Part shown: positions 20,778-26,871 of the stretch, one piece after another
Numbering within the stretch: the first letter of the stretch is position 1
How the letters are laid out: each line of letters opens with the position of its first letter
From: an uncultured Candidatus Saccharibacteria bacterium
GTDB taxonomy: Bacteria; Patescibacteriota; Andersenbacteria; UBA10190
DNA: 64,000 bases
Direction: 5' to 3'
Assembly: GCA_964371255.1 (NCBI GenBank)
Contig: CAYJKV010000005.1
Location: 13,816-77,815 of the forward strand
Position numbers and translations under genes: made by a program
The notes under the pieces: generated by a model
Seen by the model: only the letters and a program-made list of their open reading frames with translations
Database searches by the model: none
Told to the model about the DNA's origin: nothing

Positions 20778-22388
20778 ATGGAAAATAAAAAAATGCGGTA
20801 CGTTATGTACCTTCGTAAAAGTACTGATGAGGATAATCGCCAGGTGCAGTCAATTGACGACCAGAAAAAAGAACTCGACCGCGTGGTGGAGCAGCACGGC
20901 TTAAATATTGTGGAGATTATCAGTGAGTCGCGGTCAGCCAAAAAACTTGGGCGGTCAGGCTTCAATAAAATGATTGAAATGATTGTAAGTGGCAGTGCCG
21001 ATGCAATTTTATGCTGGGAGGCAACCCGCCTCGCGCGTAATCCCGTTGATGGTGGAAAAATCCAGTGGCTTATGCTGGAAGGGAAAATTAAAGTGGTGCA
21101 CACCCCGCAACGAAAATACCTCTGTACTGACAATGTCATTATGATGGCTGTGGAGTTTGGTATGTCCACCCAGTTCAGTGTTGACCTGGCAAAAAATGTG
21201 AAGCGCGGAATGTTAAGCAAAGCAGAAAAAGGCTGGCGGCCAGGACAGGCTCCACTTGGCTATCTGAACGATAAGGTAGAAGAAAAAGGCAATAAGCGTA
21301 TCTACACGGATAATGAAAAGTTCCCTATTGTTCGTAAGCTATGGGACTTATTGCTATCAGGCAATTACACCGTCCCTGCGCTCGTCACTATTGCTAACGA
21401 GCAGCTTGGCCTGCGTACCAAGCGAGGCAAGAAAATCAGCCTGGGCAGCCTGTATCACCTGTTCAATGATAAGTTCTACTACGGTGAATACACTTTTGAC
21501 GGTGAAGTCTACCAGGGCAAGCACAAGCCAATGATTTCTGCCGAGGAGTTTGACCGCACCCAAAAGATTTTAGGCCGTGCGGGACGGCCGCGACCAAAGT
21601 ACAAGCGGCTACCATTTAATGGGTTAATCCAATGCGCTGCCTGCGGTCGCACTATCACCTGCGATGAGCGGGTCAAGGTCATTAAGCGTACAGGCGAAAC
21701 CAAAAGTTTTATGTACCATCGCTGCACGCATAAAACTAGGAACCACTACTGCCCGCAGCCGCCCGTGACATTTGGCAACTTGGTCGAGCAGGTGCAGCAG
21801 TACCTGGGTAACATCACTATCCCGCCAGAGTTCTTAGAGTGGGCCGTACAGTCACTACGCGAGCAGCAGAAGCTGGAAGAAACGAACCGCAACCAAATCC
21901 TCGCCAACCTACGGAACAACCACCAGAACGTGATTGACCGCATTGATAGTCTGGTCAACAACTATATCGCGCCAGAAAATGCCAAGCGCGAACTAATTAG
22001 CGACGATGATATGAAGCGGCAAAAGGCTGCGCTCCTGCAAGAGAAGTCAGTGATTGAGCGGGAGTTGAGTAACACAAGTCTGCGCGTTAATGAGTGGGTG
22101 GACTTAACCATCAAAACTTTTCACTTCGCCACCTACGCCAAAGCCTGGTTTGATAAAGGCGACTACGAAACCAAGACTGCTATTCTCCGCGCGCTTGGCG
22201 TGACATTCACACTCAAAGACCGTAGCCTCCTGTTGGACTTGAAAGGGCCGTACGTCGTCATTAAAAAAGGTGTTGCAGCAGGATTGTTTGAGAACCCCGT
22301 ACTCGGACTGGTCAGGAAGGCTCTGCAAGAGCCTGCGCTGGCTCAACAGCCTGAAATTGCATCCGTATTATCCAGTTGGAGCGGGTAA
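20778..22388 (+). CDS. Large serine recombinase (resolvase catalytic domain + recombinase domain + Zn ribbon)
   Basis: N-terminal YVMYLRKSTDEDNRQ..SIDDQ is the catalytic-Ser motif region. Mid-section matches the recombinase domain. C-terminal CAACGR..C...YHRCTHK..HYC is a Zn ribbon. The stop codon lies inside the tRNA-Gly 3' end. Confidence 0.9.
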   Translation: MENKKMRYVMYLRKSTDEDNRQVQSIDDQKKELDRVVEQHGLNIVEIISESRSAKKLGRSGFNKMIEMIVSGSADAILCWEATRLARNPVDGGKIQWLMLEGKIKVVHTPQRKYLCTDNVIMMAVEFGMSTQFSVDLAKNVKRGMLSKAEKGWRPGQAPLGYLNDKVEEKGNKRIYTDNEKFPIVRKLWDLLLSGNYTVPALVTIANEQLGLRTKRGKKISLGSLYHLFNDKFYYGEYTFDGEVYQGKHKPMISAEEFDRTQKILGRAGRPRPKYKRLPFNGLIQCAACGRTITCDERVKVIKRTGETKSFMYHRCTHKTRNHYCPQPPVTFGNLVEQVQQYLGNITIPPEFLEWAVQSLREQQKLEETNRNQILANLRNNHQNVIDRIDSLVNNYIAPENAKRELISDDDMKRQKAALLQEKSVIERELSNTSLRVNEWVDLTIKTFHFATYAKAWFDKGDYETKTAILRALGVTFTLKDRSLLLDLKGPYVVIKKGVAAGLFENPVLGLVRKALQEPALAQQPEIASVLSSWSG

Positions 22389-22451
22389 CGGGAGTCGAAC
22401 CCGTATCTCTACCTTGGCAAGGTAGTGTAAAAGCCATTATACGATACCCGC
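22377..22451 (-). tRNA. tRNA-Gly (anticodon GCC), CCA encoded
   Basis: Reverse-complement folds as acceptor GCGGGTA/TACCCGC, anticodon stem CTACC/GGTAG with loop TTGCCAA, T-arm ACGGG-TTCGACT-CCCGT, discriminator T, then CCA. Confidence 0.85.
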
Positions 22452-22520
22452 AGGTGATATTATTTGTACCTAATTATTATCAATGCATCAATAGCGTGTA
22501 AACAAATCGCCTGCACGCAA

Positions 22521-22560
22521 TGTTTTTCATTTTTCGCTTTACGCTTTTCGTTTCTCTTGT
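22521..22560. repeat. Conserved T-rich tRNA-trailer motif, copy A (gtttttcatttttcgctttacgcttttcg)
   Basis: About 25/29 identical to the motif at 63731-63779, and similar to the one at 58616-58668. Confidence 0.7.
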
Positions 22561-22631
22561 GCCGCGGGTCAGAGTTGAACTGACTACGCCGACCTCTTCA
22601 GGGTCGCGCTCTACCGATGAGCTACCGCGGC
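22560..22631 (-). tRNA. tRNA-Phe (anticodon GAA)
   Basis: Reverse-complement GCCGCGGTAGCTCATCGGTAGAGCGCGACCCTGAAGAGGTCGGCGTAGTCAGTTCAACTCTGACCCGCGGCA. Anticodon loop is CTGAAGA. Confidence 0.8.
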
Positions 22632-22860
22632 GTTTAAACAATTATTAGTTGTATCTCTGAGGATAAGAGAAAGAGCAATTAATATCAATTATTTCCCTGT
22701 CCAACCCTTAAAGCTAGCCAACCTATACGTAGGCGTAGCCAGCTGATCAAAGATTGACAAGATTAATAATAGCTACTAATTTTATAGGTCATGCATGAGG
22801 CTGTTTTTTCGTCAGCAAGGAAGTACTTTTTACAACTCTTTTTGTGGAAGGAAGTGAGAC

Positions 22861-23865
22861 GTGGGACGACCAGTAACTTTGTTCACAGGACAATGGGCAG
22901 ATCTGAAACTTGAGGAGCTAGCCGCCAAAGCAGCCAATTTCGGCTACGATGGGCTGGAACTCGCTTGTTGGGGAGACCATTTCGAAGTAGATCGAGCCAT
23001 CAATGAAGATGGCTACTGTGCCAAGCAACGCGCGATACTGGAGCGTTATGGATTGAAGTGTTACGCCATCAGCGCTCACCTGGTTGGTCAAGCCGTGTGT
23101 GACCTCATCGACGAACGTCATAAAAGCATCCTGCCTGAAGATGTATGGGGAGATGGTGATCCCGCGGGTGTGCGTTGGCGAGCTGCGGAGAAGATGAAGC
23201 AAACAGCCATAGCGGCCAAGAGATTCGGTGTCGAAGTAGTTAACGGCTTCGTGGGCAGCTCAATTTGGCACTTACTTTATTCTTTCCCACCAGCCTCGAG
23301 AGAAACGATCGCCGCCGGCTTCACCGATTTCAAAGAAAGGTGGACTCCAATTCTCGATCACTTTCGGGCAGTAGGCGTTAAGTTTGCTCTGGAGGTTCAC
23401 CCCACCGAAATCGCCTTTGATATTGCCTCAGCCAGTCGAGCCTTACAAGCTGTTGACTGGCACCGATCTTTCGGATTCAATTATGACCCGTCTCATCTCG
23501 CCTATCAAGGAGTAGACTACGTCAGATTCATCCGTGAGTTTGGGCAACGTGTCTTCCATGTACACATGAAGGACGTCTGGTGGAACCACGGTGACGGCAG
23601 CGTAGGAGTGTTTGGCGGACACACAGCCTTCGGTGATCCACGACGTTATTGGGACTTCCGCTCGCTTGGGCATGGCGATGTTAATTTCGAAGAGATCATC
23701 GTAGCGCTCAATGATGCTGGTTACCAAGGACCGCTTTCGGTGGAATGGGAAGACATGCGCATGGATCGTGAGCACGGGGCAGCAGAAGCCTGCCAGTTTG
23801 TGAGACGAGCAGACTTCAAACCATCAAACGTCGCTTTTGACGCCGCCTTCGATAAGGAATCATGA
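22861..23865 (+). CDS. Sugar phosphate isomerase/epimerase (xylose-isomerase-like TIM barrel family)
   Basis: GTG start. [17 protein letters not shown]...H.KD..W is characteristic of the AP-endonuclease-2/XylA-like TIM barrel. GC-rich. A TTGACA(17)TAATTT-like promoter lies upstream. Confidence 0.75.
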
Positions 23866-23964
23866 CCATCACCACCTATCGGTTGATGCTAGTAGCATTA
23901 ACCGATTTTTTATGCCGATATTTACAATCATAATATGTTAAGGTAAAACCATTATATCCATGCG

Positions 23965-24036
23965 GGGCGGTTAGCTCAGTGGTAGAGCAGTGCGTTTACA
24001 TCGCAAAGGTCGGGGGTTCGAACCCCTCACCGCCCA
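23965..24036 (+). tRNA. tRNA-Val (anticodon TAC)
   Basis: GGGCGGTTAGCTCAGTGGTAGAGCAGTGCGTTTACATCGCAAAGGTCGGGGGTTCGAACCCCTCACCGCCCA. Anticodon loop is TTTACAT. Confidence 0.85.
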
Positions 24037-24137
24037 CCTTACACAGCGTCCTCGCCTAACACGGCATATCCAATATTTACTACCTAAAAGCTTTAGCCAG
24101 AACAACTAAAGACTATATCCACTGTTAATATCATTAG

Positions 24138-24222
24138 TGCGGACGGTGGGATTTGAACCCACAACCTCGTAATGAGGCACAGCCCCTCAAGCTGCTGCGT
24201 AAACCAATTCCGCCACGTCCGC
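24138..24222 (-). tRNA. tRNA-Leu (anticodon GAG), long variable arm
   Basis: Reverse-complement GCGGACGTGGCGGAATTGGTTTACGCAGCAGCTTGAGGGGCTGTGCCTCATTACGAGGTTGTGGGTTCAAATCCCACCGTCCGCA. Anticodon loop is TTGAGGG. Confidence 0.8.
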
Positions 24223-24256
24223 ATAGTGAAGAGAGTAGCTTTGTTCTCATGATGTT

Positions 24257-24967
24257 TCAAGCGATTCGCAATATCGACCCGCCCTTTTTGTAGCCTTTGG
24301 GTTGCTGTCCTTTCTGGGCGAGGTAATTAGCTGCCCATTGGCGATCAAGTTTTGCTTTTTTGCGCTGAAGACATGCGATGCAATCAGAGTAATACATTGC
24401 CTGGTAAATCTTCAGTGAGTTTTGTTTTGCATATTTCAAACAATATACCTTGGAGCCACGACGAACATGTCCAGATATTCCAGCTAATTTATTGACTGTT
24501 TGGTCAAGCCATACTAAATGTTTTTTACTAGCACAGGCAAAGCTAATGTAAAGCGAAACACTACTGTGCCATCGAGTATCCCAGTAGGCATGTGATGATC
24601 CATCGCCATCAAATTCTCCGCGTAAATAATCAAAAAAATATTGGTCTGGGATTTGTACTTTACCAATAGTGTGAGTTTTACGAGGAGTAATGCCTATAGA
24701 AACAAACCACTCGTAAAGGGTTACGTCACCAAATTGCACTTGTGAGCAACGATTTCCGTCACCCGAGGGCTTGCTGCTTATCTTAACATTTAAACTTAAG
24801 CATTTTTTAAATGTTTCTAATAATTGAGTATCCTTAGAAGTTAGGCTCAAGTGTCTACCGTCAGAATATAGGCATCCGTCAGTAGCCATAAGACCACAAG
24901 CGTAAGCTAACTCTGGTGTCCATTCTGGAATTCGTAGGCGCCTTGGTTTTGAACCTCTTTTCCCCAT
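24257..24967 (-). CDS. Free-standing double-motif LAGLIDADG homing endonuclease
   Basis: Motif 1 LAYACGLMATDGCL. Motif 2 YLRGEFDGDGSS, about 100 aa later. 236 aa with a basic C-terminus. Confidence 0.8.
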   Translation of the reverse strand: MGKRGSKPRRLRIPEWTPELAYACGLMATDGCLYSDGRHLSLTSKDTQLLETFKKCLSLNVKISSKPSGDGNRCSQVQFGDVTLYEWFVSIGITPRKTHTIGKVQIPDQYFFDYLRGEFDGDGSSHAYWDTRWHSSVSLYISFACASKKHLVWLDQTVNKLAGISGHVRRGSKVYCLKYAKQNSLKIYQAMYYSDCIACLQRKKAKLDRQWAANYLAQKGQQPKGYKKGGSILRIA

Positions 24968-25107
24968 ATGTAAAAGAATTCAAAGTCACTTATTTTTATT
25001 GTACGCCTCTTGTTTACACGATCACATGGTTAAAAAAGCTGAGCTAAAATATGCCATTTTCTGCGTCGATTAGCTGTATACAACCAGAACACAGTAAAAT
25101 ATGTTTT

Positions 25108-25746
25108 TCAAAATAACGCTGCCTGCTTTTGTTGGGACAATATTTCTTTTTGGCTCTCCTCTTCTTTGTTTATTGGATTACCTTGTTTCAGTAATTTCAG
25201 TACTTTAGGAATATTTTGAAAATCAGTCAACAGTACCGGTCGTAAATTCCCCCGGTAAAGCGCTGCGGCCGGATGATACATAGGAATTACCACTTGGTCC
25301 TTCTTGTTTCTTTTTGGCTGCCCATGAATTTTTGAGATCGATAAAGTTTCACCCAAAAAATGAGCCATTGAGTACCTGCCTAAAGTCACAATCAATTTTG
25401 GCTGTATGATCGCTACTTGTCCATCCAGCCATGGTGCATAAGCTATTAACTCCTCCGGTAGCGGATCTCGATTTCCCGGCGGTCTATGCTTTACCATATT
25501 CGCAATAAAGACATCTTCCCTCTTGAGCCCGATACTGCCAATCAACTCCGTTAAAAATCGGCCTGCCGCCCCGACAAACGGCCTGCCTTGTTCATCTTCA
25601 TCTTTGCCGGGTCCTTCCCCGACAAATAAGAGTGCGGCGTCTGGATCCCCCTCCCCCGGGACCCCTTGGGTAGCCGTGGCCTTGAGCGGCAACTCCTTAG
25701 CTATCCATTCTTTGTTTAACTCTTCTAGTTGTTGCTGTTTGGACAT
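25108..25746 (-). CDS. Uracil-DNA glycosylase, family 4
   Basis: GEGPGKDEDEQGRPFVGAAGRFL and the HPAA region match UDG family 4 motifs. The start is taken at MSKQQQ. Confidence 0.85.
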   Translation of the reverse strand: MSKQQQLEELNKEWIAKELPLKATATQGVPGEGDPDAALLFVGEGPGKDEDEQGRPFVGAAGRFLTELIGSIGLKREDVFIANMVKHRPPGNRDPLPEELIAYAPWLDGQVAIIQPKLIVTLGRYSMAHFLGETLSISKIHGQPKRNKKDQVVIPMYHPAAALYRGNLRPVLLTDFQNIPKVLKLLKQGNPINKEEESQKEILSQQKQAALF

Positions 25747-25764
25747 ACAGAATATAATTATAAA

Positions 25765-26005
25765 TCCAAATTCCAAAGCTCAAATGCCAAATTAATATCA
25801 AATGACTAAACGACAAAATCTCAGACATTAGTCATTTGGATTTTGATTAATCATCGAAATTTGGCCTCTAAGAGGTCCCATAAGGATCATTGATCATTAT
25901 AAACCTTGTTTGAAATTTGGTCTTTGTAAATTGAAAAGTGTTGCTCCTTGTTTGAAATTTGGTCATTCGGATTTGATTGGGATTTGGGATTTGGACATTG
26001 GGATT
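25765..26005. repeat. Array of CCAAAT (x4, 25765-25792) and inverted ATTTGG-type (x7 or more, 25855-26005) hexamer motifs, with an 11-bp perfect inverted repeat caaatgactaa/ttagtcatttg (25799-25809 / 25828-25838) and a 19-bp direct repeat cttgtttgaaatttggtc (x2)
   Basis: Read directly from the sequence. Intergenic between the nfo stop and the UDG start, and extending into the nfo 3' end. Confidence 0.8.
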
Positions 26006-26871
26006 TTTTTCACTGTTCTCCATTCCTTTAGCCTCTCCAAATCCTGTCCAATCAGTTCGTCCTGTTTCGTCTCCAGCACAAAATTGACCTGTTGAAAATA
26101 TGGATGGGCTAATATGGCCTTAAATCCATCCTCTCCAATCTTGCCTAGTCCGATATGTTCATGGCGGTCCTTTTGTTCACCTAAGCCAGCCTTTGAATCA
26201 TTGATATGCACCAGTTTCAACCGCTCAATGCCTAAAGATTGCTTAAATTGAACCATTGTTTCATCTAGCGCCGCTCTTGTTCTTATATCATAACCGCTGG
26301 CAAACATATGACACGTATCTAAACAAACCTGCATGTCTTTCTTACCTAAACCTTTGATAATATACGCTAGCTCTTCGAATGAATTGCCAATCAACGCTCC
26401 AGCACCCGCGGAAATCTCCAACAACAAGCGCGCGGTAAACTTTGGGTTGCCGTGTAGCACCGCCCGCAGTCCCTTGATCGTTCGTTTTAATGCCCCACCG
26501 GGTGTTTTACCCTTTTCCACACCTGGCCAATCCCTGGCGCTGCCCAAATGCGTTACCACGTATTTTACTCCCAATAAACTAGCTCTCTCCATCTCCTCTC
26601 GTACCACCCTGACAGTATTCTCCGCCAACTCCTTCTTGGGAGCAGCAAAGTTAATGTAGTAAGGCGTATGCATATAACTTTCCATCTCATACTGCTGGCA
26701 GCGTTGCCTGAATAGCAATGCATCATCTTCGCTTATTTGGGGAGCTACTCCACCGCGCGGACTGCGCGAAAAAAACTGGAAACACTCCGCGCCGACCTCT
26801 TTCGCTCGGTCCGGTGCCTTGGCCACTCCCCCGGCCGCCGATACATGTAATCCTACTTGCTGGTATTTCAT
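25963..26871 (-). CDS. nfo: Endonuclease IV (AP endonuclease family 2)
   Basis: YMHTPYYINFA...HLGSA...CLDTCHMFASGYD are the conserved Nfo metal-binding blocks. The C-terminal tail of about 20 aa is encoded by the repeat array. Confidence 0.9.
   Translation of the reverse strand: MKYQQVGLHVSAAGGVAKAPDRAKEVGAECFQFFSRSPRGGVAPQISEDDALLFRQRCQQYEMESYMHTPYYINFAAPKKELAENTVRVVREEMERASLLGVKYVVTHLGSARDWPGVEKGKTPGGALKRTIKGLRAVLHGNPKFTARLLLEISAGAGALIGNSFEELAYIIKGLGKKDMQVCLDTCHMFASGYDIRTRAALDETMVQFKQSLGIERLKLVHINDSKAGLGEQKDRHEHIGLGKIGEDGFKAILAHPYFQQVNFVLETKQDELIGQDLERLKEWRTVKKIPMSKSQIPIKSE

Follow-up and report, generated by a model that had tools for sequence, protein, structure and literature searches.

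A free-standing LAGLIDADG homing endonuclease family tied to tRNA-Leu(GAG) in bacteria of the candidate phyla radiation

The endonuclease gene and its protein

The stretch analysed here, hereafter the window, comprises 64,000 nucleotides of contig CAYJKV010000005.1 (assembly GCA_964371255.1) from an uncultured bacterium of the Andersenbacteria, within the candidate phyla radiation (CPR, Patescibacteria). On its reverse strand lie, in reading order, the genes for deoxyribonuclease IV (Nfo), a family-4 uracil-DNA glycosylase (UDG) and a free-standing, two-domain LAGLIDADG homing endonuclease, followed by tRNA-Leu(GAG) (Table 1). No other copy of the endonuclease family was found within the window. 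The gene is probably a selfish element aimed at the tRNA gene, and its relatives in other CPR genomes are compared below with this possibility in view.

Pfam LAGLIDADG_3 matched the window protein above the family cut-off (E=5.6e-7), while neither a second Pfam match, an added helix-turn-helix (HTH) domain nor an NCBIfam match was detected. Its sole sequence match in the PDB was I-Tsp061I (2dch, E=5e-8). An AlphaFold2 model built from 36 homologues (predicted local distance difference test, pLDDT, 89.4; predicted template modelling score, pTM, 0.87) folded into two alpha-beta-beta-alpha-beta-beta-alpha halves, the first opening with helix 18-29 and the second with helix 108-122, each followed by strand, strand, helix, strand, strand and helix. 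In this model each LAGLIDADG motif occupies the C-terminal end of the first helix of its domain. The top Foldseek matches in the PDB were all LAGLIDADG proteins, headed by 2dch (E=4.7e-11) and followed by intein endonucleases, WhiA, I-DmoI, I-SceI and the I-OnuI family. Both motifs that the sequence-only reading had picked out (LAYACGLMATDG and LRGEFDGDGS) are present, and with two motifs in one chain and an acidic residue ending each, the protein belongs by its fold and catalytic residues to the two-motif monomeric LAGLIDADG class.

The active site is intact, which settles the earlier question of a pseudo-endonuclease. Among 88 distinct family sequences Asp30 is kept in 87, and Asp122 and Lys97 in all 88. 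The residues R116, G117, D120, G121, D122 and G123 around the second motif are invariant in 88/88, as are G25, L26 and G31 in the first motif and a YWDxRW block. Between the window endonuclease and its 94%-identical relative at locus L093 (loci are designated by L numbers throughout), 27 of the 40 changed codons are synonymous, and the ratio of nonsynonymous to synonymous substitution rates (dN/dS) is 0.12. Because of this low ratio and the retained catalytic residues, the window gene is judged functional and its active site under selection. Enzymes of this class make site-specific double-strand cuts in long targets of about 18-22 bp and leave 4-nt 3' overhangs, and such cleavage is predicted for the window protein.

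That the gene stands free, outside any intron or intein, was borne out. At the gathering threshold Rfam returned only tRNAs for the whole window, with no group I or group II intron and no rRNA, and at a permissive threshold no intron or rRNA model was found across 22300-26200; a group I intron overlooked by the first reading was thus sought at both thresholds and not found. The open reading frame (ORF) is intergenic, has its own start and stop, and is not fused to any host protein, so it is not an intein. The gene does not mark intron or intein mobility, which the first reading had offered as one possibility.

tRNA-Leu(GAG) as the constant neighbour

A protein search recovered 183 homologues, the named ones all from CPR/Patescibacteria (Andersenbacteria, Berkelbacteria and Minisyncoccia). 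Among representatives of 50%-identity clusters, 88 clusters matched at E<=1e-30, 974 at E<=1e-10 and 6098 at E<=1e-3. With one genome counted per species, the species genomes that encode a relative number at least 408, and the titles of nearly all of them name Parcubacteria-type CPR lineages. From this species scan 80 loci were kept, of which 78 were evaluable and two cut by contig ends. Records L022, L032, L049 and L089 are titled Omnitrophica, Gammaproteobacteria or Burkholderiales, yet show the CPR-type order rplS-endonuclease-tRNA-Leu; these are probably mis-binned or mislabelled contigs of metagenome-assembled genomes.

Every homologue locus examined at the outset had tRNA-Leu(GAG) 3-35 nt downstream on the same strand. 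The linkage was found in 78 of the 78 evaluable species loci, directly in 77 and in L019 after its ORF was re-delimited. A profile search of all ORFs of 93 loci gave 96 family matches, of which 91 were followed by tRNA-Leu(GAG), three by tRNA-Phe(GAA) and two by no feature before the contig end. Thus 91 of 93 tRNA-Leu-type ORFs precede tRNA-Leu(GAG), the other two being those cut by contig ends. The stop codon lies at most 36 nt inside the tRNA and at most 35 nt ahead of it, with a spacing of 34-35 nt in the window's clade and of -36 to +14 nt in most other lineages. Adjacency to tRNA-Leu(GAG) is the defining, near-invariant feature of this endonuclease family. The first reading had noted the tRNA merely as a distance of 35 bp, measured here as 34 nt.

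The upstream neighbours are not constant. At the three closest homologue loci the order Nfo-UDG-endonuclease is kept and at the fourth an extra gene intervenes, whereas more distant homologues stand in unrelated neighbourhoods, after rplS or after the gene of a solute-binding protein. The order rplS-endonuclease-tRNA-Leu was seen in about 66 of the 80 genomes, with UDG upstream in the window's clade. Hence, although the adjacency to UDG and Nfo (25108..26871) reported by the sequence-only reading is real, the weight that it gave to the repair genes is not warranted; gene order across the loci marks the adjacency as synteny of the window's own clade with no evident functional meaning, and UDG and Nfo are syntenic host genes outside the element. 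A functional operon with UDG and Nfo, a tempting idea, was rejected, since the arrangement is confined to the closest clade, rplS takes its place elsewhere, and L214 shows Nfo-UDG-tRNA-Leu without an intervening endonuclease gene.

Many family members lack a stop codon ahead of the tRNA, so that the reading frame runs on into it and closes there, often at the TGA formed by U33-G34-A35 of the anticodon loop (L038, L053, L067, L068, L070, L071, L075, L076, L091 and others). Processing of such an endonuclease-tRNA co-transcript by RNase P would cut off the stop codon located in the tRNA.

A sister subfamily is linked to another tRNA. A second LAGLIDADG_3 gene at L004, 37% identical to the window protein, ends on tRNA-Phe(GAA), and a search of its own returned 262 matches for this subfamily. 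Four further members from different CPR lineages share about 10-20 nt with the 5' end of tRNA-Phe(GAA), so that the linkage was found in five of five independent loci, and L017 carries a truncated sister copy at the same tRNA. No sister gene lies upstream of the tRNA-Phe of the window itself, which is an empty site. Because specific subfamilies are tied to specific tRNA genes, the pattern argues that the tRNA gene would be what the enzyme recognises.

Furthermore, directly upstream of tRNA-Gly(GCC) or tRNA-Val(GAC) in CPR clusters, ORFs were observed that combine an HTH at the N-terminus with one LAGLIDADG-like motif (FYWAEGFK, LYWGEGDS, LYISEGGK or FYLAEGGK). Pfam recognises only their HTH, and they may represent a further, unrecognised family of tRNA-linked endonucleases.

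Table 1 Positions of the endonuclease gene, its neighbours in the window, and tRNA-linked ORFs at other loci.
Feature	Sequence	Position	Strand	Basis or remark
Free-standing two-domain LAGLIDADG homing endonuclease gene	Window	24257..24967	-	ORF with ATG start, 236 aa + stop
LAGLIDADG motif 1, LAYACGLMATDG, residues 20-31	Window	24875..24910	-	Sequence
Catalytic Asp30 codon, motif 1	Window	24878-24880	-	
LAGLIDADG motif 2, LRGEFDGDGS, residues 115-124	Window	24596..24625	-	Sequence
Catalytic Asp122 codon, motif 2	Window	24602-24604	-	
Spacer, endonuclease stop codon to tRNA position 1	Window	24223-24256	-	34 nt
tRNA-Leu(GAG)	Window	24137-24222	-	ARAGORN + Rfam, 55.6 bits
Intergenic region, UDG stop to endonuclease start	Window	24968..25107	-	140 nt
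Family-4 uracil-DNA glycosylase (UDG)	Window	25108-25776	-	Pfam, NCBIfam
Deoxyribonuclease IV/Nfo	Window	25963-26871	-	Pfam, NCBIfam
tRNA-Val(TAC)	Window	23965-24038	+	
Sugar-phosphate isomerase/IolE-like TIM-barrel gene	Window	22861-23865	+	
tRNA-Phe	Window	22559-22631		Empty site; region 22559-22860
tRNA-Gly(GCC)	Window	22377-22451		Strand opposite to recombinase gene
Region of the large serine recombinase gene	Window	20778-22451		536 aa; Resolvase, Recombinase and Zn-ribbon domains
Sister endonuclease gene at tRNA-Phe(GAA)	L004	7873-8562		LAGLIDADG_3
Sister member at tRNA-Phe(GAA)	L214	2501-3196		
Sister member at tRNA-Phe(GAA)	L215	2501-3220		
Sister member at tRNA-Phe(GAA)	L216	2501-3193		
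Sister member at tRNA-Phe(GAA)	L217	2501-3172		
Truncated sister copy at tRNA-Phe(GAA)	L017	7250-7687		
HTH-bearing ORF	L139	5399-6112		
HTH-bearing ORF	L167	5035-5871		
HTH-bearing ORF	L217	1720-2391	-	
HTH-bearing ORF	L183	3-464		
HTH-bearing ORF	L094	1-588		

Empty sites, mosaics and tRNA turnover

Metagenome contigs were scanned with a pattern made of the anticodon loop and the 3' half of CPR-type tRNA-Leu(GAG). Of 120 loci among the matches listed, about 37 carried bacterial-type and about 12 CPR-type tRNAs, the rest being mostly archaeal-type tRNAs that were set aside; these dominate the pattern matches, and any estimate of endonuclease prevalence from them is crude. The CPR cluster reads ftsH, tRNA-Ile(TAT), tRNA-Val(GAC), a rluD-like gene and rplS, then the endonuclease or nothing, and then tRNA-Leu(GAG), tRNA-Val(TAC), tRNA-Phe(GAA) and tRNA-Gly(GCC). 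Measured from where the rplS match ends, tRNA-Leu lies 14-126 nt away in loci without the ORF and 647-950 nt away in loci with it, a bimodal distribution in which L034 (1162 nt) and L028 (1360 nt) are outliers among the ORF-bearing loci. At least ten rplS-tRNA-Leu loci lack the ORF (L094, L124, L130, L139, L140, L147, L167, L178, L183 and L210), against about 66 that carry it, and relative to empty alleles the indel of about 700 nt is clean and consists of the ORF alone.

Empty sites also occur within the synteny of the window. L214 carries Nfo-UDG-28 nt-tRNA-Leu(GAG)-tRNA-Val(TAC) with no ORF between UDG and the tRNA, its Nfo and UDG being 82% and 77% identical to those of the endonuclease-bearing L014. 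Similarly, L107 has the order UDG-HAD-tRNA-Leu without the ORF, which is present in L006 (UDG 76% and tRNA 89.5% identical). Aligned with these endonuclease-less alleles, the intergenic region 24968..25107 is placed as the left edge of the insertion. In the spacer on the other side of the gene, an alignment of ten clade members revealed a semi-conserved block (..GGTAC.CTCT.. or (A/T)(G/A)GTAC.CTCT) common to the endonuclease-bearing alleles of the window's clade, including L001, L004, L014, L015 and L016, and not found 5' of the tRNA in L214 or L107, which are empty. This block is possibly a promoter or processing signal; a promoter and terminator scan around the gene gave nothing above shuffled expectation and no convincing promoter. 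The pattern of presence and absence is that of a mobile or readily lost element and not of a domesticated housekeeping gene.

In individual comparisons, divergence of the endonuclease is not matched by that of its flanks. Between the window and L015 (Candidatus Andersenbacteria RIFCSPHIGHO2_02_FULL_46_16) the proteins are 86% (UDG), 83% (Nfo) and 61% (endonuclease) identical, while L001, although more distant than L015, has an endonuclease closer to that of the window (67%). In the comparison of endonuclease with host identity over the rplS-context loci, described below, outliers run in both directions. The clearest is L085, which shares 100% of rplS and 97-98% of rluD with L060 and L087 but only 75-77% of the endonuclease. 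At the DNA level L085 and L060 are 95-100% identical from rluD to about 175 nt into the ORF; identity then drops to 72-90% and further to 49-60% across the 3' part of the ORF and most of tRNA-Leu, before returning to 100% from the T arm on, with 96-100% downstream. Within the tRNA, differences affect the acceptor stem, D arm, anticodon stem and variable arm alike, and pairing is kept in each. The divergent patch of L085 finds its best match in L063/L065, with 80% identity across the final 145 nt of the ORF together with the tRNA. A similar trough separates L049 from L086 (upstream 0.74-0.84, 3' third of the ORF 0.61, tRNA 0.57, downstream 0.90 and 0.84), and between the empty L214 and the filled L014 tRNA-Val is 90% and tRNA-Leu about 49% identical. 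Since a divergence of about 40% inside near-identical DNA cannot arise by mutation alone, the trough, as aligned, must reflect replacement by recombination with a diverged allele, the replaced unit spanning the 3' end of the gene and the tRNA.

The tRNA itself has departed from its hosts. When endonuclease-bearing genomes were compared over the same loci for each tRNA, the Spearman coefficient of tRNA against host identity was 0.15 for tRNA-Leu(GAG), 0.64 for tRNA-Val(TAC), 0.21 for tRNA-Arg(TCT) and -0.12 for tRNA-His(GTG); at a host identity of >=0.8 the mean tRNA identities were 0.75 (minimum 0.59), 0.92 (0.81), 0.96 (0.85) and 0.84 (0.75), respectively. tRNA-Leu(GAG) is thus uncoupled from host identity, whereas tRNA-Val(TAC) and tRNA-Arg(TCT) track the host at >=0.8. 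Moreover, an identical tRNA-Leu(GAG) body recurs with different acceptor stems across hosts, and in seven endonuclease-less lineages, ascertained via the 3' half of the tRNA, rluD is 60-78% identical yet tRNA-Leu(GAG) 94-100%. Compared with this conserved endonuclease-less type, the tRNAs of L127 and L071 carry six to seven substitutions that fall close together between the D loop and the anticodon stem, which in this one lineage is suggestive of a target or immunity patch.

Beyond tRNA-Leu the window departs from its relatives. In these, tRNA-Leu, tRNA-Val, tRNA-Phe and tRNA-Gly follow in order on a single strand, while in the window tRNA-Val(TAC) and the adjoining isomerase/IolE-like gene are inverted, and the 3' end of tRNA-Leu is precisely where homology with the close relative L093 breaks off. 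A gene for a large serine recombinase terminates 12 nt inside the 3' end of tRNA-Gly(GCC), where the relatives have none; its region may be an integrated element left of the tRNA.

Proposed homing to a tRNA gene, rival accounts and known systems

The reading that we favour, with some reserve, is that of a free-standing homing endonuclease which homes to the tRNA-Leu(GAG) locus and co-converts the tRNA gene. The enzyme would cut tRNA-Leu(GAG) alleles that lack the endonuclease or are of a different type, within the tRNA gene or at its 5' edge, and the break would be repaired by recombination with an endonuclease-bearing copy, for which rplS or UDG on one side and the T arm with the tRNA-Val/Phe/Gly cluster on the other could serve as homology arms. 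Repair would bring in the ORF of about 700 nt and often the donor's tRNA-Leu allele too, which would have to be resistant to cleavage; the near-zero spacing between ORF and tRNA would hold the nuclease and its linked tRNA allele together, as in the intronless homing of the Seg and Mob genes of phage T4. If the stop codon falls within the tRNA, translation of a co-transcript would compete with its processing by RNase P, which could hold nuclease levels low.

A bolder form of this reading, put forward tentatively and with less than even confidence, is a natural 'cleave-and-rescue' gene drive, in which the nuclease cuts foreign or wild-type tRNA-Leu(GAG) and is welded to a recoded, resistant and functional allele. 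The resulting arms race would scramble the stems of tRNA-Leu(GAG) through compensatory pairs, independently of host phylogeny. Sister families would act likewise at tRNA-Phe(GAA), and perhaps tRNA-Gly and tRNA-Val would be attacked too, so that the CPR tRNA cluster would be contested ground for meganucleases that target tRNAs.

Several results weigh against homing. Over 52 rplS-context loci, endonucleases are the more alike the more alike their hosts are (identity of rplS and rluD; Spearman 0.61), and because of this correlation much of the history of the endonuclease is taken to be vertical. Genomes that share a tRNA-Leu type have endonucleases only 1-2% more similar after host correction (permutation p 0.05-0.22), and a partial Mantel test of endonuclease against tRNA type gave p 0.14. 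Global co-travel of tRNA type with endonuclease was accordingly discarded as weak or not significant, and cassette swaps are claimed for individual mosaics only: the apparent co-travel of gene and tRNA comes from three or four such cases. The uncoupling from the host is not unique to tRNA-Leu(GAG), as tRNA-His(GTG) also tracks the host poorly (22 loci among L013-L092). When filled and empty alleles were compared for a target site, no consistent signature emerged across lineages, and the endonuclease-less loci, having been found through the tRNA pattern, are a biased sample. No decayed copies linked to tRNA-Leu were seen, although a cycle of invasion, decay and loss predicts them. Among viral contigs only relatives at 22-29% identity were found and no close ones, so that no vector was identified, and the tRNA-Leu(GAG) pattern had zero viral matches.

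Part of this evidence serves a rival account, which we hold to be unlikely, namely that the gene is ancient, vertically inherited and repeatedly lost, that it no longer homes, and that the mosaics are ordinary recombination between strains. The tRNA linkage would persist simply because rearrangements cannot split features 0-35 nt apart. The overall tracking of the host by the endonuclease, the want of a significant association with tRNA type after host correction and the lack of close phage-borne relatives are all as it would expect. However, a dN/dS of 0.12 and catalytic residues that are invariant across 88 sequences call for a selective reason, which a selfish gene that no longer homes does not have. 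Nor does the account explain why the troughs are centred exactly on the 3' end of the gene and the tRNA in DNA that is otherwise 95-100% identical, why tRNA-Val and tRNA-Arg of the same genomes are unscrambled, or why a sister family of the same architecture sits at tRNA-Phe, with an empty site in the window.

Domestication, which the sequence-only reading had offered as an option, is rated as very improbable. Here the protein would have acquired a host role tied to tRNA-Leu(GAG) or to DNA repair, for example as a regulator or a factor in processing that shares its transcript with the tRNA, or as a nuclease working with UDG and Nfo. Strong purifying selection and the wide distribution over at least 408 species would agree with such a role, co-orientation and near-overlap with the tRNA imply co-transcription, and there is a precedent in WhiA, which is among the structural matches. 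Yet the gene is missing altogether, at exactly this site, from close relatives that share its flanks and tRNA cluster, the catalytic residues are kept, and no Pfam match beyond LAGLIDADG_3 was found. Moreover, the adjacency to UDG and Nfo is confined to one clade with rplS elsewhere, the divergence of the gene is at odds with its flanks in the outlying pairs, and a maturase would have no intron to serve.

Group I introns can occur in bacterial tRNA-Leu genes, as in tRNA-Leu(UAA) of cyanobacteria, and the endonuclease could by that analogy be the relic of one encoded in an intron or intein, such as a group I intron once present in tRNA-Leu, or in an rRNA insertion. Even though CPR bacteria hold many LAGLIDADG genes inside rRNA insertions (PMC11270868) and the closest solved structure (2dch) is encoded in an archaeal rRNA intron, this origin is essentially refuted: the whole of the tRNA lies downstream of the ORF without interruption, no model of an intron or rRNA appears even at permissive thresholds, the indel against empty alleles is the ORF alone, and each of the 91 evaluable family loci has this same arrangement.

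Bacteria rarely carry free-standing LAGLIDADG endonucleases, and if homing to tRNA-Leu(GAG) is true, intronless homing would extend from phages to cellular chromosomes, with a selfish nuclease driving the turnover of an essential tRNA gene. It would also explain why tRNA-Leu(GAG) departs from the organismal phylogeny, which would be a caveat for tRNA-based inference. The family would then be a natural library of compact (about 210-240 aa) monomeric meganucleases (88 clusters at E<=1e-30, 974 at E<=1e-10), whose targets might be guessed from paired filled and empty alleles. The comparison of loci further corrects the notion of a functional link between the endonuclease and UDG/Nfo.

The window protein shares its two-domain fold, with an Asp ending each motif, with I-Tsp061I (2dch), I-DmoI, I-SceI, I-AniI and the I-OnuI family, and its size of about 200-240 aa with monomeric LAGLIDADG enzymes of the I-Tsp061I type. 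It is only about 22% identical in sequence to the latter, which reside within introns of rRNA or protein genes or in inteins, whereas the window ORF stands alone, 5' of a tRNA. Tsurumaki et al. (2024, PMC11270868) describe LAGLIDADG genes of CPR bacteria in insertions of the 16S and 23S rRNA genes, many of them in group I introns, and a second paper (PMC11809585) also describes CPR LAGLIDADG genes in rRNA insertions. These share with the present family the host group, the superfamily and a conserved RNA gene as home, but they interrupt that gene, while the ORF of the present family sits beside an intact tRNA. The literature searched on LAGLIDADG in CPR, Patescibacteria and Parcubacteria held only rRNA-insertion cases and no account of a family linked to a tRNA isoacceptor, and the word tRNA is absent from PMC11270868. 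What appears to be new, as read from the genomes, is a free-standing lifestyle for this enzyme family, a new type of home, and a cellular instead of a phage setting.

The closest mechanistic analogue to the mosaics is found in phage T4, where SegB lies in a tRNA gene cluster and drives the preferred inheritance of the tRNA region (PMC2330249), and where the free-standing Seg and Mob endonucleases perform intronless homing (PMC2330249, PMC2790892). In both settings a free-standing gene lies between conserved genes, and in T4 the preferred inheritance comes about by co-conversion of flanking markers. SegB is, however, a GIY-YIG enzyme of a phage that acts in co-infection, in contrast to a LAGLIDADG family of bacterial chromosomes, and unlike SegB the present family keeps to one tRNA isoacceptor across a phylum-level radiation. 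A further likeness is to WhiA (PDB 3hyi; Foldseek E=3.9e-8), a transcription factor of Gram-positive bacteria and likewise a bacterial, chromosomal and stand-alone protein of the LAGLIDADG fold. The catalytic residues of WhiA are lost, an HTH domain stands at its C-terminus and its conservation within its lineages is universal, whereas the window protein has an intact active site and LAGLIDADG_3 only, and close relatives are without the gene. Finally, synthetic cleave-and-rescue and home-and-rescue drives are engineered Cas9 systems in insects, in which the nuclease destroys the wild-type essential gene and is tightly linked to a recoded, resistant copy of it. If the proposed mechanism holds, the family described here would follow the same logic, with a tRNA allele, whose resistance is putative, in place of the recoded gene.

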